DNA of 64,000 nucleotides. It comes from a virus. Lineage: Duplodnaviria > Caudoviricetes. The stretch lies in IMG/VR virus record IMGVR_UViG_3300031951_000008; one strand, written 5' to 3'. Below are positions 21,866 through 45,257 of this stretch, piece after piece. The position numbers and the translations under genes are program-made. Position 1 is the stretch's first letter, and every line of letters begins with the position of its first letter. A model generated the notes under the pieces. That model was not told where the DNA came from, did no database searches, and saw only the letters and a program-made list of their open reading frames with translations.

Positions 21866-22195
21866 ATGCAAGATTCATTTGTAGTTATTGGTGATATCGT
21901 CAGAGGAGTATTAAAAACTCATGAGCAAAAGTATCGGTATAAGACCAGCATAAGCATTTACGACATGAAATGCCAAGCCTCTTTTCTGATTTGCAAAAGT
22001 TCTTCGTTCAGAACAGCTAAACACTCGATTGAAATAGAGATGTTAAATACTTCTTTGCATTTGACACTTACTATTAACTCCAAGCCGCTGTCTATCAATA
22101 AATATGTCAGGACATTGACTATAGATTTATCAGACCCGAAATCATTGTGTTTAATTGAACAATTATTGGTTAAGTTCTGTAGGAAAATAAAATGA
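21866..22195 (+). CDS. Outlying member of the 'IxLxDP' paralog family
   Basis: C-terminal 'LTIDLSDPKSLCLIEQLL'. Confidence 0.65.
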   Translation: MQDSFVVIGDIVRGVLKTHEQKYRYKTSISIYDMKCQASFLICKSSSFRTAKHSIEIEMLNTSLHLTLTINSKPLSINKYVRTLTIDLSDPKSLCLIEQLLVKFCRKIK

Positions 22196-26778: not shown

Positions 26779-27126
26779 GTGTTAGAAATTGTGCGAGCTA
26801 TTGCGACTACATTGCATCACGATACAGGATTCGATTTTTCTATATTAGACACGACCTATTCACTTGGGCTGTACTTCACTTCTTCTGTTAGAGCACATCC
26901 AATTATCTGTTTTCTGTTCGATTCTAGACAAGCTAATGGGCTTGTAGCAACAATCATACCACTAGAGGTAACTGCGGTGTCTAATAAAAAATTTTCAGAC
27001 ACGTTACGAGTTATACTCAATACTAATCAGATCGGCTCTCCAGCCATAAACATGGATAATCCAGATTCTATTATTAAACTTAGGATGGTATTGCAAAAAG
27101 TCAACGAAATGGTAAAATTAAGTTAA
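26779..27126 (+). CDS. 'IxLxDP' family member 1
   Basis: MLEIVRAIATTL ... INMDNPDSIIKL. Confidence 0.7.
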   Translation: MLEIVRAIATTLHHDTGFDFSILDTTYSLGLYFTSSVRAHPIICFLFDSRQANGLVATIIPLEVTAVSNKKFSDTLRVILNTNQIGSPAINMDNPDSIIKLRMVLQKVNEMVKLS

Positions 27127-27131
27127 GTTTA

Positions 27132-27596
27132 ATGATCAACATAATAGAATTACTTTGTGATTATTTCATAACTACTAAGCCTCAAATAGGTGGCTTTAAA
27201 TTTATTTATGGGCTTGATGACACTAATTGCGATCAAGGTTACTTCATAAAAGTAATAGATAATAACAACATAGATATTTTTCTACGCTTAGAAAAATTGG
27301 TAATCAGAGCAGGCTGTATTATTCGTACTAGTCTTAAAGGTGCTGAATTAAAAATATCTAGAGACTTGCATGTTACTCATAGGATTAAGTGGCATACATT
27401 TTTTAATGTTACGGCTATTCCCTTAGTTCCGTATCGGTTAGGTATATCTTATGTAGCTCAACATCTAGACATTCAAGATCCCGCATGTATCGAACAATTA
27501 TTATCTATATTAAACGAACAGTTTCGTACGGTGATTAACCATGAGTCGTTAGGTACAATCATTCGCCATCTTCGGTATGATTTAACATACCGATGA
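27132..27596 (+). CDS. 'IxLxDP' family member 2
   Basis: MINIIELLCDYF ... LDIQDPACIEQL. Confidence 0.7.
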   Translation: MINIIELLCDYFITTKPQIGGFKFIYGLDDTNCDQGYFIKVIDNNNIDIFLRLEKLVIRAGCIIRTSLKGAELKISRDLHVTHRIKWHTFFNVTAIPLVPYRLGISYVAQHLDIQDPACIEQLLSILNEQFRTVINHESLGTIIRHLRYDLTYR

Positions 27597-27608
27597 GTTC
27601 GACAATGC

Positions 27609-28061
27609 TTGAATTCCTACAAAATAACCTTTCACAGTTCGAGGCCGATTTTGTCTGAGTCTCTACAGGCCATTGCGAGCGAGTTAGATTCTTATCTACC
27701 GAGCACTCTTGCTATATGCATTAATGAATCTACCGCAACTCAAGCTAGCATACGATTTGGTTATGTAACTGATTCACATCTTACGATAACGATTCCGACA
27801 TTGTTCGGTGAAGATTGGGTATTTACGATCTTTATAAATGAAGACAATGTCGTTTTATTATGCCGTAAGTTTATCCGGACTTTCCACATTCCAACCGGCT
27901 CTTCCAGATTAATATTACAACCACAGACTGCTCGCAAAGAGTCTCAAGGGCGACATGCATCTTTCACCTTTAGGAAAGTAAGCCTTCATGATCCATCAAT
28001 GATGTACAAGATAGTACAAATAGTTAAACAACGATCAGAGACAATTATGGGCAGTAAATGA
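27609..28061 (+). CDS. 'IxLxDP' family member 3
   Basis: ESLQAIASEL ... VSLHDPSMMYKI. Confidence 0.7.
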   Translation: MNSYKITFHSSRPILSESLQAIASELDSYLPSTLAICINESTATQASIRFGYVTDSHLTITIPTLFGEDWVFTIFINEDNVVLLCRKFIRTFHIPTGSSRLILQPQTARKESQGRHASFTFRKVSLHDPSMMYKIVQIVKQRSETIMGSK

Positions 28062-28423
28062 ATGACGTAATTAGAGCTATTGAACAACATTTGAAACTAA
28101 CTATCGGCGATCAGTTACATATTTATTCAAGAGACGACCACATATCTGCCTATGTCGTTTATTCATATGTAGGCAATCCTATTAGGTGCGAACTGTGGTT
28201 CACCATGGAGTTCTCATTGGATACTGTAGAGATACGAAGCAGAGAACAAGTAACTGAATGGAGTGATGGAGTTCAAACTGGCATTATTAGCGACAAAAAA
28301 CTTGGAACTGACCAATTAAGCCTAAGTGATCCTCAACTAATCCCAAAAATTTTCGCCAGTCTCCAATTTCAGTTTAGTAAATCAGACGATCGTCGCTGGT
28401 TACGTTTAGTATCAAACTTATAA
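28058..28423 (+). CDS. 'IxLxDP' family member 4
   Basis: MNDVIRAIEQHL ... LSLSDPQLIPKI. Confidence 0.75.
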   Translation: MNDVIRAIEQHLKLTIGDQLHIYSRDDHISAYVVYSYVGNPIRCELWFTMEFSLDTVEIRSREQVTEWSDGVQTGIISDKKLGTDQLSLSDPQLIPKIFASLQFQFSKSDDRRWLRLVSNL

Positions 28424-28426
28424 ATC

Positions 28427-28804
28427 ATGCAACAGTTACTACAAGCTTTAGAAAGTATTCGTGTGTATGGCTTTGCGGACAATAGTGCTTATTTATTTGA
28501 ATTAGACTTGTAGGCTCTAATGATTGTTGAATCTGAGGTGCTAAGCGTCAACTATTAACCTGTCGCCATCGATGTAGATTCTAACAGAATGAATACCAAT
28601 ATGTGCGTATTCATTCTCGATCTTTACGTGTTGGATGATACTGAATATCCTCTCCTGCCGCGAGCTAAAATGGATATATATGATGAGGAATCGAGGCTAA
28701 TAATGGCAGGAAGCAAGGAGATCACGCTACATGGCCCTGACATTGTCACAAGAATATTAAACACCATACAGACATTGGTCTCTGAGATTAGATTCGATTA
28801 TTAA
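28427..28804 (+). pseudogene. 'IxLxDP' family member 5, two in-frame stops
   Basis: MQQLLQALESI..., TAG 28511-13 and TAA 28556-58, then the same frame continues to ITLHGPDIVTRI. Confidence 0.75.
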
Positions 28805-28806
28805 TT

Positions 28807-29364
28807 ATGGCCGTCAAACCATTTCTCGACTTGAGTAGAGTATTCATTCCTAAATTCAAAGTACCAATGAATCACTTACAAGACCAGCTTATCAACGAGA
28901 TAGCTGTATTAGAAGCCATAAAGATGGCTTTAAGCTGCCATTTCGACAAGAGCATTCCTAACAATGTGGTCTCCTACCATATTTATACAACGCCATCAGC
29001 ATCTAAGCACTACAGACAATGTGGACGCTTCGAGATTAATCATCGCATGAAACCATACCTGTTAGTTGATGAACTTTATACAGTAAACACCGAGTGTCAT
29101 GATATGAAAATCTGTGTAAATGGAGATTCTATTAGATTGTCAACTACTCACGGTGAAATGGGAGCGGTCCTAATCGATGTGAGCTTGCATAATACTGAAT
29201 TTTTATCTAAAATCGTAGCAATAGTGCAAGAATTCGTTCAAGTTCATAGAAATCATGGTGGTAGTTTAGAAAACGCTTTGAAGCGATTAGCTAGTCTACG
29301 ATCTCGTGGAGGAAATGGTTCACCGTTCGTTTTCGACGTATTGAGTCGTCCTAATGAATCATAA
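28807..29364 (+). CDS. 'IxLxDP' family member 6
   Basis: AVLEAIKMAL ... VSLHNTEFLSKI. Confidence 0.7.
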   Translation: MAVKPFLDLSRVFIPKFKVPMNHLQDQLINEIAVLEAIKMALSCHFDKSIPNNVVSYHIYTTPSASKHYRQCGRFEINHRMKPYLLVDELYTVNTECHDMKICVNGDSIRLSTTHGEMGAVLIDVSLHNTEFLSKIVAIVQEFVQVHRNHGGSLENALKRLASLRSRGGNGSPFVFDVLSRPNES

Positions 29365-29728
29365 TTATACAGCCACAGAAGCGATGCTAGTAGAGTTGCA
29401 GAAAGCGATTTTGTCGCTTAGTGTTGATTTGACAAAAATTCAATGCTATTTAATTAGTTCGCATTTGTCAATTAAGAATTTAGAGGATCGAGTTACCACG
29501 ACTATCACTATAGTTAATGGCTATATTTACATAGAAGCCAACCCATATTACGATGGCTCTTATATAATTGCAGATCCTCCTAAGGCCATAGTTCCAAGGT
29601 ATACAACAAATACAAGTCCTCGTTTGGAAAACAAGTTCGCCGTCAGTCTACATCACCAAGACTTTATAGACCAAACAGTTAAAGCTATTGTGAATATGGG
29701 ATCGGTTATATTCAATGATAGACCCTGA
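29354..29728 (+). CDS. 'IxLxDP' family member 7
   Basis: AMLVELQKAI ... VSLHHQDFIDQT. Confidence 0.7.
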   Translation: MNHNYTATEAMLVELQKAILSLSVDLTKIQCYLISSHLSIKNLEDRVTTTITIVNGYIYIEANPYYDGSYIIADPPKAIVPRYTTNTSPRLENKFAVSLHHQDFIDQTVKAIVNMGSVIFNDRP

Positions 29729-30107
29729 GCAAAGTATCGCCTTCACAATACTGCAGCAAATAAGGGAAACTATATTGCAGGAGTCTAAATATTTTGTTGA
29801 GTTTATTGGTAAAGAACTCACGCCAGCATACAATGGGGTCCTGTCTTTATCTGTCAGCAATCCGACCACTGGCGTATACTTGGTGGCTGCTATTAAGAAA
29901 GACCGTATCATACTAGTAGCAATACCATCCGTACCTTACCTTAATAACCTACACAAAGCCACACTTAATCCAGGTCTATATGATCTTAATCCGGTTCTTA
30001 CAAAAACCATACGGGACATAGACAACAAAAGGCAAATAATTAGTTTACATGACCAGGATTTCATCAATATAACCGTGCGAACAATAATACAGATGTGCGA
30101 GCAGTAA
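29715..30107 (+). CDS. 'IxLxDP' family member 8
   Basis: TILQQIRETI ... ISLHDQDFINIT. Confidence 0.7.
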   Translation: MIDPEQSIAFTILQQIRETILQESKYFVEFIGKELTPAYNGVLSLSVSNPTTGVYLVAAIKKDRIILVAIPSVPYLNNLHKATLNPGLYDLNPVLTKTIRDIDNKRQIISLHDQDFINITVRTIIQMCEQ

Positions 30108-30449
30108 ATGATAGACTTAATGCAAGCCATATATGACTACCTTAAATCACGGCTTGAATCAGAATCGGTATCCATAGATATATTATGGAGATTACAAGTT
30201 ACGCCAGGCAAATTGCAAAACCAGATCGAAGTAGGAAATGAATGCTATATACAAGTTCTTAAGGAGGTCAATCTTAACATTTATATAAGGGAACAGATAT
30301 TAGAAATAACGCAGTATAATGCTTTCCATTCTTATCCCACCATGCTGATTTGTATACACGATCCACAATTATTAAGCAAGTTAGAGCAGGCTGTGATGGC
30401 ACCTGTTGATATAGGTAGATATCCTCACGAAACAATAATCAAGTGGTAG
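30108..30449 (+). CDS. 'IxLxDP' family member 9
   Basis: MIDLMQAIYDYL ... ICIHDPQLLSKL. Confidence 0.75.
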   Translation: MIDLMQAIYDYLKSRLESESVSIDILWRLQVTPGKLQNQIEVGNECYIQVLKEVNLNIYIREQILEITQYNAFHSYPTMLICIHDPQLLSKLEQAVMAPVDIGRYPHETIIKW

Positions 30450-30455
30450 AGCACC

Positions 30456-30779
30456 TTGGAGACCATGCTAAATTCACCTGACATTATCCTAGCTATCAAA
30501 GACCTCATTGAACCGATGGTCGTAGCAGAGGGGTATAAAGCAAGCATTGTAAATGATTCACTGTGGTCCGGAACAGATCTTGCACAAGCATATATTAGCA
30601 TAGATCCAGCCACGGATAGACTTGAAGATGGTTTATCAATAAGCTTTGATCATGACAAGTTAATTGTTAGGAGGTATCACTTACAAGCTCGTGGTACAAC
30701 TAACATCCATATCAGTTTACACGAACAGGATTTGTTGCCTAAATTAGTAAAAGCGATAACTACGCTCATAACTTACTGA
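30456..30779 (+). CDS. 'IxLxDP' family member 10
   Basis: SPDIILAIKDLI ... ISLHEQDLLPKL. Confidence 0.75.
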   Translation: METMLNSPDIILAIKDLIEPMVVAEGYKASIVNDSLWSGTDLAQAYISIDPATDRLEDGLSISFDHDKLIVRRYHLQARGTTNIHISLHEQDLLPKLVKAITTLITY

Positions 30780-30841
30780 CACCGAACGCCGCTATACTAG
30801 CCCTACCCTTTTCATAGATCTATAGCTCAAAGACAGCGACA

Positions 30842-31195
30842 ATGCAAAAATCACCTGATATTATTCTAGCTATCAAAGGCCTCATTGAACCGATAGTCGC
30901 AGCAGGTGGGTATAAAGCAAGCATCCATAAGGACAATACCAGAACCTATATATACATAGATCAAATCATAACTGAAGATTACATACCCAGATATAGTTTA
31001 TCAATAAATATAGATAGCGATAGGTTAGTTATAATGAGATATGACTTACAAACTCAATCTGTAGATTTTGTAGTAGCTTACTCGGTAACAACTTGTTATA
31101 TCAGTCTACACGACCCGGATTTATTACCAGAATTAGTAAAAGCGATAACTACACTCATCAAAAACCATGATTATATACCACGATGTAGTATTTGA
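30842..31195 (+). CDS. 'IxLxDP' family member 11 (recent duplicate of member 10)
   Basis: SPDIILAIKGLI ... ISLHDPDLLPEL. Confidence 0.75.
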   Translation: MQKSPDIILAIKGLIEPIVAAGGYKASIHKDNTRTYIYIDQIITEDYIPRYSLSINIDSDRLVIMRYDLQTQSVDFVVAYSVTTCYISLHDPDLLPELVKAITTLIKNHDYIPRCSI

Positions 31196-31204
31196 CTATT
31201 ACCC

Positions 31205-31609
31205 ATGGACTGCCTTATCCAAGCTATCTCACAACACCTACAACAACGATTTCATCGCGAAATAGCCGCTGAAGTCATAGTTATAGAACAGCCACAACTA
31301 ACAATTAAGCCATCTCAATACGGACCAGTACATGAATTTGTTGTCAAAAGCCAATTAGATAACGGTACGGTAATTCATCACATTGCAGACAACGGAAGCA
31401 AGCTCGATGTAACATCTTCCGCATATGTCCCCACGTGGGACGATCCCTATCGATATTTAGGCGAAGCCATAATAGATACAGTAGATCCAGATAGCTTAAA
31501 GCTGTTAGATGATTTAATAGCCAAATGGCTACCAAATAACGACCAGCAGGCTGGTAGCTACTTCATCTTCGACAAAGCACTCGTATGTGTTAGAGGTCAG
31601 ATACTTTAA
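31205..31609 (+). CDS. 'IxLxDP' family member 12
   Basis: MDCLIQAISQHL ... IDTVDPDSLKLL. Confidence 0.75.
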   Translation: MDCLIQAISQHLQQRFHREIAAEVIVIEQPQLTIKPSQYGPVHEFVVKSQLDNGTVIHHIADNGSKLDVTSSAYVPTWDDPYRYLGEAIIDTVDPDSLKLLDDLIAKWLPNNDQQAGSYFIFDKALVCVRGQIL

Positions 31610-31644
31610 TCGCCAAATGGTTACATATGTGGAGGATTAGTGTT

Positions 31645-31968
31645 GTGCAAGACTTGATCCAAGCGATATACGGACACTTAAAAAACGAGTTATTCTCCAG
31701 GCCAGGAATGCCTACTTTGGTCGGCGTTATAACCGACAATAAGATAAGGCTTAAAGTCAGTAGCGAAAAATACGAGATCCAAATATCTATCCTTGGTGTA
31801 CCACGCACGGCATTTCACGTGGTCAAGTATCGTAATTATACGCCTGTAATTACGCAGAGCCATATTATTAGTTTACATGACCCAAACTTCCTAAGCGAAA
31901 TAGAGCAAGCTGTAATTGATTTAGCAACCTTCCCAAGAATAACACCTAAACTGGCAAAGAATGAATAA
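31645..31968 (+). CDS. 'IxLxDP' family member 13 (GTG start after GGAGG)
   Basis: VQDLIQAIYGHL ... ISLHDPNFLSEI. Confidence 0.75.
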   Translation: MQDLIQAIYGHLKNELFSRPGMPTLVGVITDNKIRLKVSSEKYEIQISILGVPRTAFHVVKYRNYTPVITQSHIISLHDPNFLSEIEQAVIDLATFPRITPKLAKNE

Positions 31969-32341
31969 TACTACTGTAGTTCTTCTACAAATAGCCGATC
32001 TTATCAGCAATAGGTTGCCGGACTGCAGTGTAGACACTAACCATGTTAATCCTAATTCACACATAAGACAACTTATTTATATCAAGTATCAGGGCAATTA
32101 TATAGCTACACTAATAATTGACGGCGATACTATAAAGCTCTTGCAATATATTGATAGTAATTATTGGGTACGCAAGACACAACAACGTAATAAAGAACTA
32201 CAAGGAGTAAAAGACTACATAGCAAGTGTCAGTCTACACGACCACAATTTTGAGAGCAAAATAATAGATGGAATCAAACTCATACAAAGCTATAATCTCG
32301 TGTATATACGCCGAGTACTACGGCCCAGAAAACGTCGATAA
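31961..32341 (+). CDS. 'IxLxDP' family member 14
   Basis: VVLLQIADLI ... VSLHDHNFESKI. Confidence 0.7.
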   Translation: MNNTTVVLLQIADLISNRLPDCSVDTNHVNPNSHIRQLIYIKYQGNYIATLIIDGDTIKLLQYIDSNYWVRKTQQRNKELQGVKDYIASVSLHDHNFESKIIDGIKLIQSYNLVYIRRVLRPRKRR

Positions 32342-32359
32342 TGTGACAAGAGATAAACA

Positions 32360-32680
32360 ATGCAAGACCTAGTCTCAGCTATATTTCAACATCTCAAGCA
32401 AAGGCTGCCGCACATCAACATATCGACCTACAATTGCAGCAAGATAGTTAACGGTATGGCCGTGGAGAGTCTAGGCATAAAGATTAGGTTCACTGAGGAA
32501 TATTTAGACATAAGCCTAGACACAACCATGAGTCAGATAAAAGTTAACCACCATAATAAATTACCAGCCGACGTAGCGTGGACTGTTGAAAATTTGCAGC
32601 CGAAGTCAATGATCCATATCGATCTAAATGACCCTAACTCCTTAGAACTGTTAATCGAATATATCACCAAAAGAGCATAA
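32360..32680 (+). CDS. 'IxLxDP' family member 15
   Basis: MQDLVSAIFQHL ... IDLNDPNSLELL. Confidence 0.75.
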   Translation: MQDLVSAIFQHLKQRLPHINISTYNCSKIVNGMAVESLGIKIRFTEEYLDISLDTTMSQIKVNHHNKLPADVAWTVENLQPKSMIHIDLNDPNSLELLIEYITKRA

Positions 32681-32682
32681 TT

Positions 32683-33192
32683 ATGGATACCTCTACTAAT
32701 TCAGTACCAGATGCTGAAAGCCTTATACTGCGATCCACTGCAGACCATATAAAAGAAAGGCTGAAGGAGAATCCGCATCTTATCTCTTGTGCATATTTTC
32801 ATTATACTGTACCACGGTCAATAGAGATACGATGCGAGATAGTCAAAGAAATACAACATCCAGAAATCCAAGAGGTGGATTCATGGACAGGGACATGCGA
32901 AACTCCAGAGGGATGGAGGCTACCTCCCGTCCGGCAAGCTGCTAGTGAGCCACAAATTATATATCTCCTGCCTAAGGTTGTTATAATACACGTAATTACC
33001 TTACAGTCAGATCGTCTAATAATAGCCTCAAAATGCTTTGTCGGCACCACAAAACGCTCCCTATACGGACGAGGTCGCGAAACCTCATTAGATATACATG
33101 TACCGGACCTTATCGATCAAATAGTCGAAATAGTTAGCGATATGGCCTATCCTAAGTCGCAGGCAGAAACATACTTAGATAATACGCCCTAG
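32683..33192 (+). CDS. 'IxLxDP' family member 16
   Basis: ILRSTADHI ... LDIHVPDLIDQI. Confidence 0.7.
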   Translation: MDTSTNSVPDAESLILRSTADHIKERLKENPHLISCAYFHYTVPRSIEIRCEIVKEIQHPEIQEVDSWTGTCETPEGWRLPPVRQAASEPQIIYLLPKVVIIHVITLQSDRLIIASKCFVGTTKRSLYGRGRETSLDIHVPDLIDQIVEIVSDMAYPKSQAETYLDNTP

Positions 33193-33233
33193 CCGCCGTT
33201 CACACAAAGTAAAGCTGTTGCCACAAATAAATT

Positions 33234-33572
33234 ATGCGAGACTTAACAATAGCAATATATGAACATCTCTGTCGAGCCACCCCCGGAAAAAGACGAGCCT
33301 CTTGTAAGCCACTCCACGATCACATATATTTGAGATTTATCGGCCCCGGAGAACGCGACCAATTAGCACCAGGCAGCTGGGTAATATTCATAGAAACAGA
33401 CACATCATACGAAATAAAAATCAACGCAAAAGCCCAGCTTCAGATCATATCTTACGTGGAAAACCAGGAAAGCTCTGAATGGCCTCCTAATCATATAGAA
33501 GTAACAACCATAGACCTCAACGAACCAAACTGCCTAGAACGACTCACTCGACTAATAAACAAATGCAACTGA
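33234..33572 (+). CDS. 'IxLxDP' family member 17
   Basis: MRDLTIAIYEHL ... IDLNEPNCLERL. Confidence 0.75.
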   Translation: MRDLTIAIYEHLCRATPGKRRASCKPLHDHIYLRFIGPGERDQLAPGSWVIFIETDTSYEIKINAKAQLQIISYVENQESSEWPPNHIEVTTIDLNEPNCLERLTRLINKCN

Positions 33573-33892
33573 TACAAGCCATATACGACCACTTAATGCA
33601 AGCAATTCCAGAACGCAGGTACGGACGTATATCTCAGAACTACAACGATGAATTAACTATAGAAATACAAACCCACAAAATGTTTGAAATCACAATCGCA
33701 GAAGATCTGAACAGTCTCAAGATAAAATCATACTATTACATATATCGAGATTCTGTCGAGCCAGGCAATGATGTACCTCTTTATTCAGGCTTAGACTACA
33801 ACTGGATCGATATCCATGCAACTAACCTATTAGATCTACTAATACATATAATAAAGACAAAGTCCCAAGCCGATGAATTCGCAATACTATGA
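33563..33892 (+). CDS. 'IxLxDP' family member 18
   Basis: MQLIQAIYDHL ... IDIHATNLLDLL. Confidence 0.75.
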   Translation: MQLIQAIYDHLMQAIPERRYGRISQNYNDELTIEIQTHKMFEITIAEDLNSLKIKSYYYIYRDSVEPGNDVPLYSGLDYNWIDIHATNLLDLLIHIIKTKSQADEFAIL

Positions 33893-34683
33893 GGAATTCG
33901 ATGAGCCAGACAAACACAGAAATGCTTTTGTCTCTTCGTGACCACCTGAGACAAAAGCTACAAGGTTATGAACAAATGATGGTAGAGTTATACGTGTATC
34001 CACACCAATCTCATATATTGGTAGTGTATGTTATACGCGTACCCGAACCACTGACAAGAGCCCACACCATCCAACTACAGCCAGACACAGACATAGTTAA
34101 TATCGAAACTATTGATTATGAAGCTTACGGCAAAAACGGCAACAAGATAGACAGCCACAACATCAGTATCTGTCGACCGGACTTCTTGGAACAAATCGAA
34201 CGAGTAGCCACAAACATGCAAGGCCAAGCCACACCAACATTACTCGCCATATCAAAGCACTTAGAAGAACTATTGCGAGATCGTCTGTCACCAGCACACC
34301 ATCGAGAGTTATACCAAAAAATCTATAAAATAGACATTTATACATATGCTACGTCACAAGAACGAATTAAAGTTGCTATAGAGGTTTTCGCAACAGCACC
34401 AACTACTATGCCATATCATGCTGGAACCTGCTACCTCCAAATAAAAGACGGGAAGGTAGGCCTAAATATATGCGTAAGCCAAACCGCCCAACGCCAGTTA
34501 ATCGCCGGGACCAGCATGCTTAGAGGCGAACAGTTTTACGACATAGATGAATATGTTATAGACCTGAATCGGCCAAACGCACTAGAGCAAATAACACAAC
34601 ATATAGTAACAAACGTAACAACAGGCATCACCGTCTGGTTAAGTGAATGCGAGTACGTAAAAGCCAAGACCAACCAAGTATGA
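33889..34683 (+). CDS. 'IxLxDP' family member 19, two fused domains
   Basis: LLSLRDHL...ISICRPDFLEQI followed by LLAISKHL...IDLNRPNALEQI. Confidence 0.75.
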   Translation: MRNSMSQTNTEMLLSLRDHLRQKLQGYEQMMVELYVYPHQSHILVVYVIRVPEPLTRAHTIQLQPDTDIVNIETIDYEAYGKNGNKIDSHNISICRPDFLEQIERVATNMQGQATPTLLAISKHLEELLRDRLSPAHHRELYQKIYKIDIYTYATSQERIKVAIEVFATAPTTMPYHAGTCYLQIKDGKVGLNICVSQTAQRQLIAGTSMLRGEQFYDIDEYVIDLNRPNALEQITQHIVTNVTTGITVWLSECEYVKAKTNQV

Positions 34684-35096
34684 TACAACTCATAAAAGCA
34701 TTGCATAACCACCTCCGAAAAACTTATCACGACCAAGTCGTACTATACGAGTATGGCGAAGGACCAAACCAAAAGCAAGGGCTAATAGTCAACATTTATG
34801 AAAAAGACGGCATCAAGGAGGAACTAACACACTGTGTTATCATAGTGGACCCAGACGATTCCAACCAGTTAAGAGTCACTAAAATTAGACAATCCATCGT
34901 ACAAACAGTACGAGATGGTCGACACTTTGACTCGCTCAACCATCTCCTCGACCTGGCAGACAATAAACTTATCCACTTCATGGCCTTTAACTATGTGCCA
35001 CTCGTCGATTACAGCACCAAGAGGTGCTACCAAAATATAGACCTACATGCACCGAACTTCTTAGATATAGTAGACAGCATAATCAAAAGCAAATGA
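34680..35096 (+). CDS. 'IxLxDP' family member 20
   Basis: MIQLIKALHNHL ... IDLHAPNFLDIV; ATGA coupling. Confidence 0.75.
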   Translation: MIQLIKALHNHLRKTYHDQVVLYEYGEGPNQKQGLIVNIYEKDGIKEELTHCVIIVDPDDSNQLRVTKIRQSIVQTVRDGRHFDSLNHLLDLADNKLIHFMAFNYVPLVDYSTKRCYQNIDLHAPNFLDIVDSIIKSK

Positions 35097-35587
35097 AAGA
35101 ACTCGTTCAAGCTATAAAAGAACACCTAGAACAAACATTCCGAGATCCAGATATAAATATTATAGATACTATTCACCACCAACCAAAGACACGGCGATTC
35201 GGACATTACGCGACAATCAGATACACCTTAGAAGGGTTATGGCCCATAAATAATCAGTCTAATGCGACACAGTCACAAAAGCAATATGTCAATACCGTTC
35301 TAAGTTTCGCTCAAAGCGAATTAATTATAGCAGCGTTCAACCACATAATTAGTGGCACGCTTGGAGACTTTTCGATACACCCACGTATCAAATTAGCATA
35401 TCACGAGCCGGGTCTACTAGATAGAATAACCACAATCGCATTAGAACATAAACACTTAATCCAAAACCCAACAATATACAAGCAACTATTGGATTGCTGG
35501 TCATGTAGAGGCCCATATCACCCTCATGCGATAGACCACTTAGAAGAAATAAGCAAGTCAATTTGGTCACACCACCAACACAATTAG
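35093..35587 (+). CDS. 'IxLxDP' family member 21
   Basis: MKELVQAIKEHL ... LAYHEPGLLDRI; ATGA coupling. Confidence 0.75.
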   Translation: MKELVQAIKEHLEQTFRDPDINIIDTIHHQPKTRRFGHYATIRYTLEGLWPINNQSNATQSQKQYVNTVLSFAQSELIIAAFNHIISGTLGDFSIHPRIKLAYHEPGLLDRITTIALEHKHLIQNPTIYKQLLDCWSCRGPYHPHAIDHLEEISKSIWSHHQHN

Positions 35588-35710
35588 CTGTCAATTCAAC
35601 AAGGCTCTGTAGCTGCCACACAAACGTATAGACTACCCACGTGCGGGACCACATGTTTAACGGCCTAACAAATGAAGCACAAGACATAATTCAAAACGGG
35701 AACCGAGCAA

Positions 35711-35905
35711 ATGAATCTAGACGAAACAGCCAAAAGAAAAGTAGACGCATTGATCCACATACTAGAGGGCGAAGTCATGCTCCTAAGGGACACTGTTCAC
35801 GAATCAATGCACTGGAACGACGCTAGGGCAGCACAAGTAGCGATATCCAAAATCCAATCAAGTGCAAACAAGATCCTCCTTGCCCTAGGGATAGAGAAGA
35901 CATAA
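35711..35905 (+). CDS. Small helical hypothetical protein
   Basis: ORF in the + strand run; not a family member. Confidence 0.6.
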   Translation: MNLDETAKRKVDALIHILEGEVMLLRDTVHESMHWNDARAAQVAISKIQSSANKILLALGIEKT

Positions 35906-35966
35906 ACGAACATCCACTAAAAACCATGGCCCACACCTAAACATAGGCATAGGATAAATCACGATA

Positions 35967-36170
35967 ATGAAAGACAAACTCATAAAACTGATCGAAAGCA
36001 CTCACGGCCCCATGGAATGGGGAGGATCAATGGGCTGGGGAGACGGCATAATCACCTGCTCAGTTAAAAAAGATGACATGATAATCAAGGGAGTGAGTGG
36101 CGGTGATTGCACATCGCTTGAAGCCCTAATCGATCTAGCTAGCAAATTGAATATTAAACTCGGAACATAA
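35967..36170 (+). CDS. Small hypothetical protein
   Basis: AGGA RBS; 'WGGSMGWGDG'. Confidence 0.6.
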   Translation: MKDKLIKLIESTHGPMEWGGSMGWGDGIITCSVKKDDMIIKGVSGGDCTSLEALIDLASKLNIKLGT

Positions 36171-36203
36171 AGAGCTAACAACATCGTCCCTGGGGATACA
36201 GTT

Positions 36204-36461
36204 ATGATAGCGAATGAGGCTATAGAAATCAACAAAAAGGCTACAGAAGGAAACTACGATTGCAAAGTAGCGATATTCGAGCTAATCGACGAATCGGGCG
36301 TAGACTACGCGTTTTTAAGCGGGTTTGGATATAAAGAGTCTTGGAAAGGCAAGGTCTGCTCAGGGCATCGCAATGATAATGGCACAATCACGTGGCAGCA
36401 GCCATGCGGCTGCGGTACCTACACGGCTGATGAATCTCACTTCAAAGAAATAAAGGCTTAA
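36204..36461 (+). CDS. Small hypothetical protein
   Basis: 'CSGH...PCGCG' possible metal ligands. Confidence 0.55.
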   Translation: MIANEAIEINKKATEGNYDCKVAIFELIDESGVDYAFLSGFGYKESWKGKVCSGHRNDNGTITWQQPCGCGTYTADESHFKEIKA

Positions 36462-36506
36462 GATATATGGCAACGATACTACTAGGACAACGAAGCCAAA
36501 CAACCA

Positions 36507-36977
36507 ATGAACGACCTCACCCAAGCAATCAAGCAACACCTAACCGAAATATTCGAACAAAGCCGGGCACAATATAGAAGCATGTTTGTTTCTGAAGTGC
36601 AATGCAGGCATACCATCTTCTACGATATAGAGCTAATCGACTATGATGACGATACAAGGAAGAATGGCTATCGAAATATCGGTTCAAATTACGCGACCCT
36701 ATCATACCGACTCAGCTGCACAATACCAGGCCTACACATACAAACAAGAATAGACTTCCTGAGGCAAAATGAAATAATATACGAAACCCACTACATCAAA
36801 ATCAAAAACAGCCACAACAAAGAAACAAGCACAAGCTCACCTAAGATCAAAATATCAATACTCCAACCAGACTTCCTAGACAGAATCACCACAATCGCCC
36901 AAGAACACATCAAAATAATAAACAACCCCAAACTAATGGATACTAAAATGAAAAGGGCCAACATGTTTGTCTGGTAG
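36507..36977 (+). CDS. 'IxLxDP' family member 22
   Basis: MNDLTQAIKQHL ... ISILQPDFLDRI. Confidence 0.75.
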   Translation: MNDLTQAIKQHLTEIFEQSRAQYRSMFVSEVQCRHTIFYDIELIDYDDDTRKNGYRNIGSNYATLSYRLSCTIPGLHIQTRIDFLRQNEIIYETHYIKIKNSHNKETSTSSPKIKISILQPDFLDRITTIAQEHIKIINNPKLMDTKMKRANMFVW

Positions 36978-37010
36978 GGATTTTATCAACAGGCACAGAT
37001 TATAAACTAG

Positions 37011-37634
37011 TTGTCAATTCTCCATTATCCTCTCAAGACCATGCTATACATCAAAACAATCAAAATTAGCCAAAACCACAGATGCCTCAAGCAAGGCCTA
37101 GCCATAGAAGCCAAACAACTAACACTCCTCGTCGGAGATCAAGGATCAGGCAAATCAACAATCCTACAAGGCTTGGCCCAACTAGGTCAATCTAAAGAAT
37201 CATTCATAACCATAGAGTTGACACCAGAAGGCGAAAAAGGTGTAAACTCATACTATTTCGATTCCGAAAAGCACAATCCTCGCATTAAAGACCCACATCT
37301 TTACGCCACAGCAGGCGGAAAGAACGAAGGAATCGGCTTCGCATCTGCACTAAAAAGCCGATTCCAGTCTCACGGTGAAGTAATAAAAGAATTCACTGTC
37401 AATCCCATCAAAAAGGCACAAAACTGCATCGTTAATATCGACGAGCCAGAATCAGGCCTCTCAATAAGAAATCAATATAAACTAGTCAGTGCGATCCAAG
37501 CAGCTATACATAACAAAACTCAATTCTTCATAGCCACCCACTGCCTACCACTGATTCAATCTGTAGACCAAGTCTACTCCATGGAACATCTACGATGGAT
37601 GGATGCAAAAGAGTTCATACAAACCCAAATGTAG
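37011..37634 (+). CDS. ABC-type / AAA_21-like ATPase
   Basis: Walker A 'GDQGSGKST'; signature 'QSHGE'; Walker B 'VNIDEPESGLS'; H-loop 'IATH'. Confidence 0.85.
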   Translation: MSILHYPLKTMLYIKTIKISQNHRCLKQGLAIEAKQLTLLVGDQGSGKSTILQGLAQLGQSKESFITIELTPEGEKGVNSYYFDSEKHNPRIKDPHLYATAGGKNEGIGFASALKSRFQSHGEVIKEFTVNPIKKAQNCIVNIDEPESGLSIRNQYKLVSAIQAAIHNKTQFFIATHCLPLIQSVDQVYSMEHLRWMDAKEFIQTQM

Positions 37635-37655
37635 AGACTCATAGCCTACCTAAGC

Positions 37656-37976
37656 ATGAACCAAACCATAAGTGCAATCCTCGACTACCTTAAAACAAAC
37701 CTAGGCAACCCCATAGCAGGCTCAACCGTACAATGGTACCCATCAGGCATACAAATCACCAAACCATCAATTAAATTATATATCGATATAATCATAACCG
37801 CCGACACAAAAGCCAACATAATAATTGAAGGAATTCGCTATAAAGTAGTCACCAGGGATAGTAATAGCGAAGTTGTGCAGCCCATAACAAAACGATTCAT
37901 AATATACGCACACCAGCCAAACCTCCTAGAACAAATACTAACAGCAATCAACCAAATAACACAACTCACCGACTAA
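37656..37976 (+). CDS. 'IxLxDP' family member 23
   Basis: MNQTISAILDYL ... IYAHQPNLLEQI. Confidence 0.75.
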   Translation: MNQTISAILDYLKTNLGNPIAGSTVQWYPSGIQITKPSIKLYIDIIITADTKANIIIEGIRYKVVTRDSNSEVVQPITKRFIIYAHQPNLLEQILTAINQITQLTD

Positions 37977-38004
37977 CCAGGCAGCACAAAGTCTCCGCCC
38001 TATA

Positions 38005-38409
38005 ATGACAATGCTAGAAACACTCGAAGCAATAAAAACCCACCTCAACAACGACCCCACCTTACAAACAAACCAAATATATGTCATCGGTCCCGACAGA
38101 TCAATCGGGTGGGGTAAAACGTGGGGTAAAACAGGAAGATCAGCTAATTCCCACCAAGCCAAAAGACTCCTAGCTTACCACCACTACAAGGCCAAGAGCC
38201 GAACAAGCTACGTAGCACAAATCAGCATCAAACAAGACACAATCCACATAATAAAAAGCACCCTAGACCTATTAGACCCACATCCAAGCATAGAGATCGA
38301 CCTGAACGACCCCAACTTCATCCGACAAATAGTACAAAATCTCTACCAAATCGCCCAAAAATCCCACTCTTTCGAGCTAATTCCACACTCCCCAGGAGAA
38401 TTATCATAA
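38005..38409 (+). CDS. 'IxLxDP' family member 24
   Basis: MLETLEAIKTHL ... IDLNDPNFIRQI. Confidence 0.8.
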   Translation: MTMLETLEAIKTHLNNDPTLQTNQIYVIGPDRSIGWGKTWGKTGRSANSHQAKRLLAYHHYKAKSRTSYVAQISIKQDTIHIIKSTLDLLDPHPSIEIDLNDPNFIRQIVQNLYQIAQKSHSFELIPHSPGELS

Positions 38410-38801
38410 CAAGCAAGCTCGAAACACTCCAAGCAATCCAAGACCACCTAAATCAACACCCAATAATCAAAAAACACAAACTGCCAACCCTCATCAGACC
38501 TATATATACCATATCTAGAAATATAGACTCGTATTACATAGATATATACTACACATACCCGTACCAACAAGCACTATTACGAGATAGCAAAATAACAGTA
38601 TTAAAGATAAAAATCAACGAACAACAAACACAACTAGTGATAGACTATCCCACCCAACCAAGCATCAACTACCTAGACCTACAAAATCCCAACCTCCTCG
38701 TACAACTAAACAACATCGTAGAAAACAAAATAATGCACTTCACCGAACGCATACATCCATTCATCACCATGCACAAACACGCATCCAGCCTAAACAAATA
38801 A
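38406..38801 (+). pseudogene. 'IxLxDP' family member 25; start codon lost (ATG>AAG) or ATA start; missed by the ORF track
   Basis: Open frame (ITS)KLETLQAIQDHL ... YLDLQNPNLLVQL; AAG at 38415 occupies the position of ATG in neighbours (atgctcgaaacactccaagca). Confidence 0.75.
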
Positions 38802-38802
38802 C

Positions 38803-39132
38803 ATGCTCGAAACACTCCAAGCAATAAGAGCCCACCTAAACGCCGAACCCGACCTCATAAAACACCAAATCTATCTAATTGTATCACCGCTGCATGTACC
38901 ATCCACACTCATAGCCTACCACCATATTAAAGACAAAGGACAAATAATAGGTACGTGCTTCATAGCACATATCACCATCAAAGAACACACAATAGGCATA
39001 ACAAATGACCGCCACAACAACAGCATCGACCTTAGCGACCCCAACTTCATCCAGAAAATAGTATACAACATCTGCCAACTAATAGTGCCACCAGCCGACA
39101 GAATCTTCAAAGTCGTCATACAAGACAGATAG
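38803..39132 (+). CDS. 'IxLxDP' family member 26
   Basis: MLETLQAIRAHL ... IDLSDPNFIQKI. Confidence 0.8.
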   Translation: MLETLQAIRAHLNAEPDLIKHQIYLIVSPLHVPSTLIAYHHIKDKGQIIGTCFIAHITIKEHTIGITNDRHNNSIDLSDPNFIQKIVYNICQLIVPPADRIFKVVIQDR

Positions 39133-39133
39133 C

Positions 39134-39416
39134 ATGCACGAAACGCTCCAAGCAATAAAAACCCACCTCAACGCCGACCCCGAACTCACAAAACGCCAAA
39201 TCTATCTAGTCGATTCGTCAACTAAAAACCAAGTCATAGCCTACTATAACATAAACAACAAAAGACAAATAAAAGTAGCAGAACTCACCATCCAAGAACA
39301 ACATCCACCACTACAGTATTAACCTACACGACCCCAACTGCCTAAAACAAATAACACAGCACCTCAGCTACCTAACAGGCATCATCCAGAGTTTCATGAA
39401 AGCCCTTCAAGCATGA
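39134..39416 (+). pseudogene. 'IxLxDP' family member 27, frameshifted
   Basis: MHETLQAIKTHL... stops at 39322; C-motif 'SINLHDPNCLKQI' lies in the +1 frame from about 39300 to TGA 39416. Confidence 0.8.
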
Positions 39417-39481
39417 CTACCGTGGATATAGCCGAAATGGTCGCCGATTGGGCTGCTGTGGCAGGCAAGTTGGCTCCGTAA
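39413..39481 (+). pseudogene. 22-codon remnant resembling DUF5662/HD-like proteins
   Basis: MTTVDIAEMVADWAAV; locally G-richer than its A/C-rich surroundings. Confidence 0.35.
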
Positions 39482-39489
39482 CTAATAAC

Positions 39490-39927
39490 ATGCTCGAAAT
39501 ACTCCAAGTAATCAAAGCCCACCTAGATAAAGAAGTACCCACCTATCACTACGAAATAAGACACCTCAAAAACAGTCCCGGACGCGATCTACCAATAATA
39601 ATCATCCAACACAAACAAACACCCGGAACAAAGCGAAACTCCCCTATCCACGAACCAACAGTCGCTTTCCGAGGATCAGACATCGCCCAAATCAGCATAA
39701 CAAACCAACAAGAAATCTGCCTATACTCACAAACAGACAGATTCTCTCCCGGTAACAACTCCCGCACACTAACACTCTTGTGCAATAACTACGAAGTGAA
39801 ATACGCAACCTGGGGCACAGAAGAACATGGATACAGCACAACAATCACAATAGACCTAGAAAACCCAAACAGCCTCAATATGCTAACCCAAATAATCAAA
39901 GACGCAACCACACCAAGTCCCCAATAA
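39490..39927 (+). CDS. 'IxLxDP' family member 28
   Basis: MLEILQVIKAHL ... IDLENPNSLNML. Confidence 0.8.
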   Translation: MLEILQVIKAHLDKEVPTYHYEIRHLKNSPGRDLPIIIIQHKQTPGTKRNSPIHEPTVAFRGSDIAQISITNQQEICLYSQTDRFSPGNNSRTLTLLCNNYEVKYATWGTEEHGYSTTITIDLENPNSLNMLTQIIKDATTPSPQ

Positions 39928-39961
39928 ATCAACAAGCAAGTACGTCAAAAAAGGAATAGAA

Positions 39962-40177
39962 ATGACTAAACAATACTACATCGAAATAATCCAAGAAGAA
40001 ATAAGCGGCCATATAACCCGCAGCGAGGTAAGAAAAGCCACAACAGAAGAAATCGAAGAGGCCAAGTCAAGCTATCTAGCAGGAAAATGTAAGCACAAAC
40101 TCGTACAAGACACCACTTCTCACTTATTTGACGTTAGATCTTGTGCATTATGCGGTGCAGGCTTGGGTGCGATATAA
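39962..40177 (+). CDS. Small Cys/His protein (possible zinc ribbon)
   Basis: AAGGA RBS; 'CKH....CALC'. Confidence 0.6.
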   Translation: MTKQYYIEIIQEEISGHITRSEVRKATTEEIEEAKSSYLAGKCKHKLVQDTTSHLFDVRSCALCGAGLGAI

Positions 40178-40214
40178 CTTCCCAGCAATAAACAAAACCA
40201 ATCAATAAACAAAA

Positions 40215-40760
40215 ATGAACGATCTAATCCAAGCAATATACGAATACATAAACCAAATACTCACCAACCAAACAAAAGACAACCCACACATCAAACAAAC
40301 AATCATAACCGCAGGCCGCCCCCAACCAAGCTACATCCACTACGTCCTAACCAACCAAACACAAAAAATAAATACCCGCATAAGATTCCCAACAAACGAA
40401 ATAAGCATAAACACCTGCTACGAACAAAAAGACCTAACCTGGCAAGGAGAACACAAAGAAGGCCATCAAACATCAAAAACAATCCCAGACATAACACTCA
40501 CACTAAACGAACCAAACACACTAAACCAAATAGCAACAATCACCAAAGAAAACATCGAAATAATACAAAACCCAACAACACTCCTAGCAATAATCCTAGG
40601 CCCCCACATAGTAGGCAAACAACACTACGAAAAACAAATAAGCCACCTCACAGAAACAAGCAAAGCACTAAAACAAGAACCATACGCAACCGAAAATCGT
40701 GCGATTTCAACCGACCCTGCGACTCTCCTAAAACTAAATCCCCAGGCCCCAAGTCGCTAA
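40215..40760 (+). CDS. 'IxLxDP' family member 29
   Basis: MNDLIQAIYEYI ... LTLNEPNTLNQI. Confidence 0.8.
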   Translation: MNDLIQAIYEYINQILTNQTKDNPHIKQTIITAGRPQPSYIHYVLTNQTQKINTRIRFPTNEISINTCYEQKDLTWQGEHKEGHQTSKTIPDITLTLNEPNTLNQIATITKENIEIIQNPTTLLAIILGPHIVGKQHYEKQISHLTETSKALKQEPYATENRAISTDPATLLKLNPQAPSR

Positions 40761-40768
40761 AAACCAAC

Positions 40769-41344
40769 ATGAACGATCTGCTCCAAGCAATAAAAAACCA
40801 CATCGAACAAACACTAACCAACCAATTAAAGCACATAAACTATACAATCAAAGCAATAAGCACCTCAAAACCAAGATATATCCATTACCGCATAAATAAC
40901 GACAAGCAAAACATCTCCTGCTTCCTCTGGATATACAAAGACTTATCAATCCAAATAGAAACCATCTGCGGAGAAAAAGACCTAACACTAGAAGGCAAAG
41001 AACAAGAAGACTATATACGAGGCTATAAACTAAGCTATGAAATAACCAAAACAATCCCAAAAATAACACTCACACTAAACGAACCCCACTCACTAGACAC
41101 AATAACTGCAATCACCAAAGAAAACACCGAAATAATACAAAACCCAATAACACTCCGAGCAATAATCCTAGGACCAGAAAAAACAACCACAGAACAATAC
41201 GAAGAACAATACGAACAAATAAGCCACCTAAAAGAAACAAGCAAAGCACTAAAACGGCAACCACATATAATAAACCGGTATAGTAAACACAAAACGCTAC
41301 TTAGCTCAGCGGACAAAGTAAACTTATGCCGTGCAAATAAATAG
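40769..41344 (+). CDS. 'IxLxDP' family member 30 (recent duplicate of member 29)
   Basis: MNDLLQAIKNHI ... LTLNEPHSLDTI. Confidence 0.8.
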   Translation: MNDLLQAIKNHIEQTLTNQLKHINYTIKAISTSKPRYIHYRINNDKQNISCFLWIYKDLSIQIETICGEKDLTLEGKEQEDYIRGYKLSYEITKTIPKITLTLNEPHSLDTITAITKENTEIIQNPITLRAIILGPEKTTTEQYEEQYEQISHLKETSKALKRQPHIINRYSKHKTLLSSADKVNLCRANK

Positions 41345-41600
41345 AATTATAAATAATTAGAAACATTTCTTTGAAAACGGGCCTAGAAAGAAAGCTAAAA
41401 CAGGGCCTAAAAGAAGCTACGGAAGTAATGAAGTAGGGCCGCCGAGCCCTTTGAGCCCGGCTCCCTTAATTCCGGGCCTCACGTGACGAGAGTTCAACCG
41501 GACGCAAAGGAAGGCCCTTCCTGAGCCTGTCTTGGGCGTTATCTGACTTTTCTTTGACATTTTTATTTCCAGGGAGGAAATGTGCCTATTGGTCAGTTGA
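41345..41600. other. Strand-composition switch region; candidate replication origin
   Basis: Non-coding; AT-rich tract 41335-41372; direct repeats AAAAC(A)GGGCCTA..AAAGAA(A)GCTA at 41374-41419; several GGGCC/GGCCC motifs; A+C-rich to the left, G+T-rich to the right. Confidence 0.5.
41566..41581 (+). repeat. Dispersed 16-bp site copy 1 (TTTCCAGGGAGGAAAT)
   Basis: Exact match among 5 copies. Confidence 0.95.
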
Positions 41601-41631
41601 CCTAAGGGTTGCCCGGTGGCGTGCTTATCGC

Positions 41632-41835
41632 TTATTGGCTGCCCGGTCGGGTTGTTGCTTTGGTGCGTTCGTGTAGTTGTTGTGCTTGTTGGTCTACTTG
41701 GTTCATTCTTTGTACTACGTCTTGTAGGCTTTTGGCTTCTTGTTCGACCAGGTTTGGGTATTTTGTTGTTTTATACTGTTTTTGCCAGGCCCAGTTGTTT
41801 GTTGTTTTTCTTAGTTGTTCCCATATGGTTTTCAT
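41632..41835 (-). CDS. Small Q/T-rich hypothetical protein
   Basis: ATGA-type overlap; A/C-rich coding strand. Confidence 0.5.
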   Translation of the reverse strand: MKTIWEQLRKTTNNWAWQKQYKTTKYPNLVEQEAKSLQDVVQRMNQVDQQAQQLHERTKATTRPGSQ

Positions 41836-42037
41836 TGGTCTAACAGGTTTTCTATTATGATTGTTGGTATAATGTAGTCTATGATGTTGGGTGTTTGGCT
41901 TGGCTTGCCTTGGTTGTTGCTAGTTTTTTGTTGGTCTTTTTTCTTTGGTGGGGGTACTGATGTGGGTGCGTTTCTGGTGGTTTGTTTTGGGGTTGGTGGT
42001 GTTCCGTTGGTTCCCATGTTTTTCTCTCTGCTTCTGG

Positions 42038-42154
42038 TTATTCGTTCCACCACCATCGTTTTGTTAGTGTGAGGGTGGCTTCTATGATTGTTTGTGCGCA
42101 GTAGATGAGGGCTAGTATGATTATGATTGCTATTGGTATGATGATCGGTAGCAT
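42038..42154 (-). CDS. Putative 38-aa membrane peptide
   Basis: MLPIIIPIAIIIILALIYCAQTIIEATLTLTKRWWWNE. Confidence 0.4.
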   Translation of the reverse strand: MLPIIIPIAIIIILALIYCAQTIIEATLTLTKRWWWNE

Positions 42155-42217
42155 GAAACTGATTAGGGCTACCCATGCTCCGGCTGTTGTGTCTGGCTTC
42201 ATTCCAAGGCCTTTTTG

Positions 42218-42249
42218 ATCAAACGTAATTATTATAAATTACGTTTGAT
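42218..42249. other. Perfect 13-6-13 inverted repeat (recombinase- or operator-like)
   Basis: ATCAAACGTAATT-ATTATA-AATTACGTTTGAT, intergenic. Confidence 0.85.
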
Positions 42250-42299
42250 TCGAATTTGTTTTGCTTGTATGTGTATTCTTTGGTGATTATGAGGCTTGG

Positions 42300-42321
42300 T
42301 TTCCAGGGAGGAAATCGCGTG
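42300..42321 (+). repeat. Dispersed site copy 2 (TTTCCAGGGAGGAAATCGCGTG)
   Basis: Abuts the stop codon of the 42322-42825 gene. Confidence 0.95.
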
Positions 42322-42825: not shown

Positions 42826-42897
42826 CTTCTGTTGTTTATTTGTGTGTATTCTTTGGTTTGTTGTTTGTTGCCATAGGTATGTAGTGGCTGTATCTTA

Positions 42898-44592: not shown

Positions 44593-44618
44593 GGTCGCTG
44601 GTTCTTTTTGGAGTTATT

Positions 44619-45005: not shown

Positions 45006-45031
45006 GTTCGCTTTATTTGCCATATTAGGTT

Positions 45032-45220: not shown

Positions 45221-45235
45221 ATAACACTATAATAA

Positions 45236-45257
45236 TTTCCAGGGAGGAAATCGCGTG
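45236..45257 (+). repeat. Dispersed site copy 3
   Basis: TTTCCAGGGAGGAAATCGCGTG. Confidence 0.95.

Follow-up and report, generated by a model that had tools for sequence, protein, structure and literature searches.

The stretch of DNA analyzed here, referred to as the window, comprises 64,000 nucleotides of a tailed phage (Caudoviricetes; IMG/VR record IMGVR_UViG_3300031951_000008), and all family counts given below are counts for this window. According to the listing of its open reading frames (ORFs), small genes of the + strand follow each other without a break from 20.9 to 41.3 kb, and within this run about 14.6 kb (26779-41344) are occupied by an array of 30 loci with 31 domains, one gene having two domains, that constitute one homologous family. 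Genes are named here by their start positions. An initial annotation had described such an array of about 30 co-oriented loci from the sequence alone, and a profile hidden Markov model (HMM) now recognizes 29 of the 30, the first locus, 26779, being assigned by its motifs only. This model was seeded with 14 obvious members and iterated over all 381 six-frame ORFs of the window. The seed model found non-seed members with E-values as low as 2.5e-10 and recognized two separate domains in 33889-34683, which agrees with the two-domain fusion noted before, and the iteration converged at 25 ORFs with 26 domains. The model was then broadened with sequences from a close relative (L002) and from a contig of another lineage (L001), resulting in about 105 model positions, and the 29 in-array loci were matched with E-values from 1e-6 to 3.8e-32. 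The alignments cover nearly the whole model, beyond the end motifs, unrelated ORFs all had E > 0.5, no minus-strand ORF scored, and all matches are confined to the + strand and to the region from 21.8 to 41.3 kb. There are thus dozens of adjacent, co-oriented and mutually homologous genes (29-30 loci in 14.6 kb). Contigs that are 99-100% identical to the array occur in four sequencing runs from four studies, and the array is therefore not an assembly artefact; supported deletion joints within the array were not found in the contigs of these four runs.

The most conserved alignment columns lie in two terminal blocks, which are the motifs that had been seen initially: an N-terminal helix block with A7, I8, H11 and L12, and a C-terminal block with the pattern I-[DS]-L-[HN]-[DE]-P-[ND]-[FL]-L..I. 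Between the blocks, alternating hydrophobic strand positions are conserved and surface positions are variable, and the earlier idea of a conserved scaffold with a variable middle is borne out by this pattern. As noted before, the closest paralogs are neighbors (40215/40769 with 49%, 30456/30842 with 50% and 38005/38803 with 39% identity). Most other paralog pairs share less than 30% identity, and most are not detectable by BLASTP. Neither a signal peptide nor a hydrophobic segment was found in the family proteins, and the isoelectric points range from 4.4 to 9.7, hence there is no uniform charge.

How such an array changes can be seen in the relative L002, which is found on a 323,894-bp contig from the Joint Genome Institute (JGI; the sequence L003 is identical) and shares 84-94% DNA identity with the window over the region. 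All length differences between the two fall on family genes or on DNA within the array, and L002 has about seven loci fewer than the window. The genes 21866, 29354 and 33563 are missing or truncated in L002, and a block of 2.3 kb (36276-38591), which comprises three intact members, the 5' part of the start-less copy 38409 and an ATPase gene, is missing as well. The pairs 30456/30842 and 40215/40769 correspond to one gene each. Windowed identity plots reveal that both of these L002 genes are chimeras, one of them following copy 1 through the N-terminal helix block and then copy 2, the other resembling copy 1 over about 440 nt and switching to copy 2 past the C-terminal block. These chimeric genes demonstrate unequal homologous recombination within conserved end-coding segments. 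Through such exchange between neighbors, copies are added to the array and removed from it, and the expansion by tandem duplication that had been postulated initially is thereby supported. Copies are lost through deletion, inversion, frameshift and start-codon loss, and three copies of the window (28426-28804, 38409-38801 and 39134-39420) are decaying. When paralogs are compared in pairs, the conserved blocks have a synonymous difference (pS) of 0.00-0.25 and the remaining parts one of 0.4-1.1, a mosaic that points to local gene conversion and not to protein-level constraint alone; this sequence pattern suggests that the end-coding blocks are homogenized locally by conversion.

Two small inversions were noted in the same comparison. 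One of about 145-180 bp (window 28446-28626 versus L002 8272-8465) lies between short inverted repeats of 5-7 bp and breaks the window gene, and the other, of 58 bp (window 34021-34078 versus L002 12916-12973), lies between GTAGT and ACTAC and breaks domain 1 of the two-domain gene of L002.

The surviving copies evolve fast, mostly under purifying selection. Between the window and L002, the median ratio of nonsynonymous to synonymous substitution rates (dN/dS) is 0.63 for the family (n=22) and 0.14 for neighboring non-family genes (n=13; Mann-Whitney p 0.0009). Most family copies are well below 1, and several are near 1. Orthologues differ at more amino-acid positions in the middle of the domain (13.6%) than in the helices (8.9%; Fisher p 0.004).

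For the fold, two AlphaFold2 (AF2) models were generated from disjoint alignments, one for the 30108 protein with 25 window paralogs, the other with eight proteins of other contigs and none from the window. The first model, with a predicted local distance difference test score (pLDDT) of 74, has a helix at residues 2-19, five strands and a helix at residues 88-97, and the second (pLDDT 71) has the same order of elements, as expected if the family shares one fold. The domain of about 105 residues is thus predicted to be a soluble two-layer sandwich, a five-stranded antiparallel sheet with both terminal helices packed against the same face. Conservation is confined to the helices and to those strand residues that point inwards. 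Structural alignment against the PDB gave overlapping lists for both models, with Med17C, the TriTu immunity protein, actin-capping protein, frataxin/CyaY, FP domains, type III chaperones and PsiB. The Z-scores were 6.5-7.4 for model 1 and up to 9.4 for model 2, with 7-8 being the best Z that the aligner states as background without a true relative. Foldseek searches of the PDB, AFDB clusters and BFVD yielded nothing at E <= 0.001, and feature and shape searches of the ESM Atlas yielded unnamed clusters and weak leads only. In these models, the fold is a common small sandwich without a specific relative. Frataxin/CyaY and type III secretion chaperones (4hs5, 4jpd, 1ttw, 1xkp) share the two-layer arrangement with terminal helices on a sheet (Z 5.4-7.0), but the family is not related to them in sequence, as it has no match in Pfam (PF01491 for frataxin/CyaY) or among PDB sequences.

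The family had not been recognized initially, and this is confirmed by the library searches: scans of 25 (or 10) members against Pfam, PHROGs, NCBIfam and PADLOC matched no family, and the profile had no match at E <= 1 among PDB sequences. Of the defence and anti-defence models catalogued in PADLOC-DB, only those of AriA, PtuA and GajA are matched in the array, and the matching gene is the inserted non-family ATPase 37011. Among 1.84 billion representative proteins, the profile matched 21, of which 20 are the window's own proteins or orthologues with 71-93% identity. The one distinct protein, P0021, is encoded on L001, a 2.6-kb contig of another sample, together with five more co-oriented small genes, which makes six tandem members. 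The L001 genes score against the window HMM and have in common an N-terminal I-A..I helix and a C-terminal T-D-P-Q-x-L-D-K-I block. Two further proteins of the P0021 type are encoded on short contigs, also beside small co-oriented genes. When the window family and the L001 family were compared by hhalign, only the C-terminal motif was aligned (probability 61%, E 8e-5), and their kinship follows from the HMM matches together with the common motifs and the matching fold model. The family therefore forms arrays in at least two lineages and is very rare in public data. IMG/VR yielded nothing when scanned for one family member, for a flanking protein or for a degenerate pattern of the motifs, and cultured phages (50,697 records) gave no match by megablast or, with one member, by tblastn. 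In JGI metagenome contigs, 22 loci fit the motif pattern, which the HMM exposed as chance matches. More distant relatives of the phage are represented by three contigs of 81-124 kb (L026, L028 and L029) that encode proteins with 39-43% identity to the product of 24676-25407, in their case in a different neighborhood beside thymidylate kinase, dUTPase and Mom-like genes.

The array genes and their outliers are listed in Table 1. Two of the three outliers that had been suggested at the outset are retained, 21866 clearly (E 4e-12) and 23960 weakly (E 3.5e-5); the third, 46115, has no HMM score and is not supported. In case of the two-domain gene, both domains are full-length, and an alignment built on this gene placed all paralogs on domain 2. 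The array is interrupted by five non-family genes (35711, 35967, 36204, 37011 and 39962). Two of them, 36204-36461 and 39962-40177, are Cys-rich and zinc-ribbon-like, and 39962 is strongly conserved, unlike its neighbors.

Table 1. Family members and interspersed genes of the array region. HMM E-values refer to the family model; L002 is the close relative described in the text.
Position	Strand	Feature	HMM E-value	Remarks
21866..22195	+	Outlying member, 109 aa	4.2e-12	4.6 kb left of the array; 5' 185 bp deleted in L002
23960..24646	+	Possible distant member, 228 aa, long C-terminal extension	3.5e-5	Weak; model positions 18-105
26779..27126	+	First array locus, 115 aa	0.55	N- and C-terminal motifs by eye only
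27132..27596	+	Member, 154 aa	5.8e-12	
27609..28061	+	Member	7e-16	Domain start near 27651
28058..28423	+	Member, 121 aa	1.8e-19	ATGA overlap with preceding gene
28426..28804	+	Decaying copy	1e-6 (remaining C-terminal ORF 28589-28804)	N-terminal half hit by inversion of ~145-180 bp; L002 orthologue intact, 122 aa
28807..29364	+	Member, 185 aa, N- and C-terminal extensions	2.3e-23	dN/dS 0.06
29354..29728	+	Member, 124 aa	7.7e-12	Without L002 orthologue
29715..30107	+	Member, 130 aa	1.5e-13	
30108..30449	+	Member, 113 aa	8.2e-24	Protein modelled; AF2 pLDDT 74, helix-five strands-helix
30456..30779	+	Member, 107 aa, left copy of mosaic pair	5.8e-15	50% identical to 30842; synonymous difference low in first 30 codons only
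30842..31195	+	Member, 117 aa, right copy of mosaic pair	5.3e-17	Pair is one chimeric gene in L002
31205..31609	+	Member, 134 aa	7.3e-17	
31627..31968	+	Member, 113 aa	1.4e-16	
31961..32341	+	Member, 126 aa	1.7e-13	
32360..32680	+	Member, 106 aa	1.2e-17	
32683..33192	+	Member, 169 aa	1.7e-19	Large insert in sheet region
33234..33572	+	Member, 112 aa	7.6e-19	
33563..33892	+	Member, 109 aa	4.8e-17	Without L002 orthologue
33889..34683	+	Two-domain fusion gene, 264 aa	1.6e-13 and 1.6e-19	Two full domains; domain 1 broken in L002 by 58-bp inversion
34647..35096	+	Member	2.3e-18	Likely start 34680 (ATGA overlap)
35024..35587	+	Member, C-terminal extension	1.9e-19	Likely start 35093; extension common to 36507, 40215, 40769
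35711..36461	+	Three small non-family genes (35711, 35967, 36204)		Without HMM, Pfam or PADLOC match
36507..36977	+	Member, 156 aa	1.2e-18	In block missing from L002
37011..37634	+	Non-family insert, 207-aa ABC-type ATPase like AriA/PtuA/GajA		Pfam AAA_15 3.6e-14, AAA_21 8.8e-11; PADLOC AriA 8e-16; missing from L002
37656..37976	+	Member, 106 aa	1.3e-13	Missing from L002
38005..38409	+	Member, 134 aa, first of young subcluster	1.2e-20	39% identical to 38803
38409..38801	+	Start-less full-length copy, probable pseudogene	3.1e-16	AAG versus ATG of paralogs; open frame of 130 codons
38803..39132	+	Member, 109 aa	1.7e-17	
39134..39420	+	Frameshifted copy	1e-10	Stop after 62 codons, C-terminal motif in other frame; 20-bp deletion versus intact 95-aa L002 orthologue
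39448..39927	+	Member	7e-22	Likely start 39490
39962..40177	+	Non-family Cys-rich small gene, 71 aa, conserved		Without HMM match; dN/dS 0.10
40215..40760	+	Member, 181 aa, C-terminal extension	5.5e-24	49% identical to 40769
40769..41344	+	Last member, 191 aa	8e-24	L002 has chimera of 40215 (5') and 40769 (3')

Frequent translational coupling had been noted, and about 9 of the 29 junctions overlap, several of them by ATGA. A Shine-Dalgarno motif was not found upstream of the array genes, and matches to sigma-70-type promoters are about as frequent as chance predicts (60 versus 58 expected). Several of the larger intergenic gaps between 20858 and 37655 (e.g. 20858, 25408, 26651, 30780, 35588 and 35906) contain words of the TGTAGC or CATAG type, which could be part of a phage-specific promoter.

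The phage is uncultured and present in freshwater metagenomes of many studies, none of the sequencing runs listed for it being of RNA. It belongs to the jumbo phages (tailed phages of at least 200 kb) as judged from the close relative with 84-94% nucleotide identity on the 323,894-bp contig and from a Tail_P2_I match in the window. The window also encodes a sigma-70-like protein, methyltransferases, glycosyltransferases, a PSCyt1-type cytochrome and an SHD1 domain. The PSCyt1 (Planctomycete cytochrome c) and SHD1 matches are weak, the sigma-70-like protein has regions 2 and 4, and the positions concerned are 5416-6294, 55437-56372 and 10549-11448. Taken with the presence in freshwater and the absence of Shine-Dalgarno motifs, these sequence matches hint at a host of the Planctomycetota/PVC (Planctomycetes-Verrucomicrobia-Chlamydiae) type, or another one with little Shine-Dalgarno use.

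A further feature of the region is an extreme strand asymmetry in base composition. At third codon positions, the array genes between 36.5 and 41.3 kb have A 0.47, C 0.38, G 0.06 and T 0.09, whereas + strand genes to the right of 42.9 kb have A 0.13, C 0.17, G 0.30 and T 0.40. This asymmetry is mirror-imaged over 36000-46000, with a switch of sign at about 41350-41600 (about 41.5 kb). As gene orientation is the same (+) on both sides, it is not a coding-strand effect, and the base composition points to mutation that differs between the strands, around what is likely a replication origin and with a steep gradient resembling that of mitochondrial DNA. The asymmetry shapes the amino-acid composition of the youngest array copies. 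In the non-coding switch region, positions 41380-41560 contain several GC-rich, hairpin-forming repeats with GGGCC, and TTTCCAGGGAGGAAAT is found at 41566 and again at 42300. At 42217-42250, in a gap between minus-strand genes, an AT-rich palindrome with a 14-bp stem precedes a T run and may be a bidirectional terminator.

Large arrays of paralogs are not new to jumbo phages. The phages G and 121Q are reported to have tandem arrays of more than 30 similar genes (Hua et al. 2017, mBio, PMC5646251), and the initial statement that the present array is much larger than is usual in phages was therefore overstated. Common to these arrays is that a single gene is present dozens of times, side by side and in the same orientation, and that the copies are read as products of tandem duplication. 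The differences are that their genes have no sequence relation to the window family, as judged from the absence of PHROGs matches and from the empty tblastn search of the 50,697 phage records with one member, and that their copies are described as very similar, whereas the window pairs are mostly below 30% identity with conservation of the end blocks only. The window thus contains a new orphan family in an already known type of jumbo-phage paralog array, with a recombination mechanism that is unusually well documented. Multigene families that expand and contract by recombination are also known from the K3L "genomic accordion" of poxviruses and from paralog arrays of giant viruses. The analogy to accordions that had been drawn initially holds with respect to copy-number change by unequal recombination of tandem copies, as evidenced by the two L002 chimeras, but not with respect to age: accordions are recent amplifications of near-identical copies under acute selection, whereas the window array is old and diverged, even its best pairs being only 49-50% identical, and represents a standing repertoire in birth and death.

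What could be the purpose of so many variants of one small domain? As the most likely function, we tentatively propose that the array is a turnover-prone repertoire of cytoplasmic binding proteins whose targets in the host are variable, which we regard as possible, somewhat short of an even chance. Each protein would be a binding module with a different surface, the repertoire would serve host takeover or would inhibit defence or toxin proteins as immunity proteins do, and the genome would retain many variants because the hosts are diverse. The proposal is based on the small size and solubility of the proteins, the lack of a uniform charge, the conserved core with a free surface, the fast evolution, the turnover of copies and the location in a block of orphan genes. 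This block is long, co-oriented and consists of small genes, with the ATPase that resembles defence-system ATPases (37011) nested inside. Some results weigh against the proposal. The fold itself gives no function, because the matches are at or near the background of the aligner and concern functionally unrelated proteins, although many of these bind other proteins. Weak constraint would account as well as diversifying selection for a dN/dS of 0.6 with several copies near 1, for the three pseudogenes and for the absence of about seven loci from a relative that is viable. Moreover, in the more distant relatives, neither a family member nor an array of small genes is found within 10 kb of the 24676 homologue.

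The points on weak constraint lead to the alternative that the array is largely neutral filler: a jumbo capsid with headful packaging would tolerate or need extra DNA, and the copies would drift without individual function. Tandem duplication has been proposed as a route of jumbo-genome expansion (Hua et al., PMC5646251), and the high family dN/dS (median 0.63, some about 1), the three decaying copies and the roughly seven fewer loci of L002 are in line with this. However, paralogs with less than 25% identity keep intact frames and the same core residues, which needs long purifying selection on the fold, the dN/dS of most copies is clearly below 1, and the L001 lineage retains its own array. 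We consider neutral filler rather unlikely.

A more specific version of inhibition would be a bank of TriTu-like immunity-type proteins that shield the infected cell from abortive-infection toxins of the host or from polymorphic toxins of competitors. Tandem arrays of paralogs are common among the immunity genes of polymorphic toxin loci, and TriTu, the immunity protein of the Salmonella Rhs toxin TreTu (7zhm chain D; PF24689), is, like the modelled proteins, a small soluble protein in which one helix precedes and another follows an antiparallel sheet. Its whole 87-residue chain is aligned, with Z 8.5 and a root-mean-square deviation of 2.6 Å over 85 residues for model 2 and Z 6.5 for model 1, and a match at template modelling (TM) scores of 0.55-0.60 is given by an ESM Atlas cluster in which TriTu is present in 32% of the members. 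These Z-scores are nevertheless near the background of the aligner, and frataxin, the Mediator subunit Med17C and capping protein match the models equally well. None of 25 members has a Pfam TriTu (PF24689) match at E <= 0.1, and there is no toxin gene beside the array, as no ORF in 26.7-41.3 kb is longer than 264 aa and the neighbors are members or small orphans. Such an immunity-type bank appears clearly unlikely.

The observed recombination could also have a role of its own in the proposed binder repertoire. The conserved end-coding blocks would then be recombination handles, and the variable sheet-coding middles would be swapped, duplicated and deleted as cassettes, resulting in a combinatorial, fast-renewing set of binders. 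We hold this extension to be distinctly improbable; if it were true, the phage population would possess a counter-immunity library, encoded in the germline, that tracks variable defence or toxin proteins of the host. Although giant phages carry paralogous families of head-internal proteins, it is very improbable that the family is virion-associated, i.e. that it consists of packaged internal or ejected proteins, as in the inner-body and ejection families of phiKZ-like and SPN3US-like phages, or of decoration proteins, as in the models the N-terminus forms a structural helix, in which a cleavage motif of the I-x-E type is not conserved, the array lies among small orphan genes outside any structural module, and genes for stoichiometric components of a virion would not usually have such a fast turnover of copies.

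Giant phages abound in orphan genes, among which tandem arrays of paralogs belong to the few patterns that recur, and the present array is well suited to their study: the scaffold can be modelled, core and surface positions are cleanly split, recombination events are visible in a close relative, and the phage recurs in freshwater metagenomes. If the copies are dispensable, the array would support the inflation of jumbo genomes by neutral duplication. If they are target-specific inhibitors, it would be a ready-made library of small binders and a model for the standing diversity that a phage maintains against host defences.

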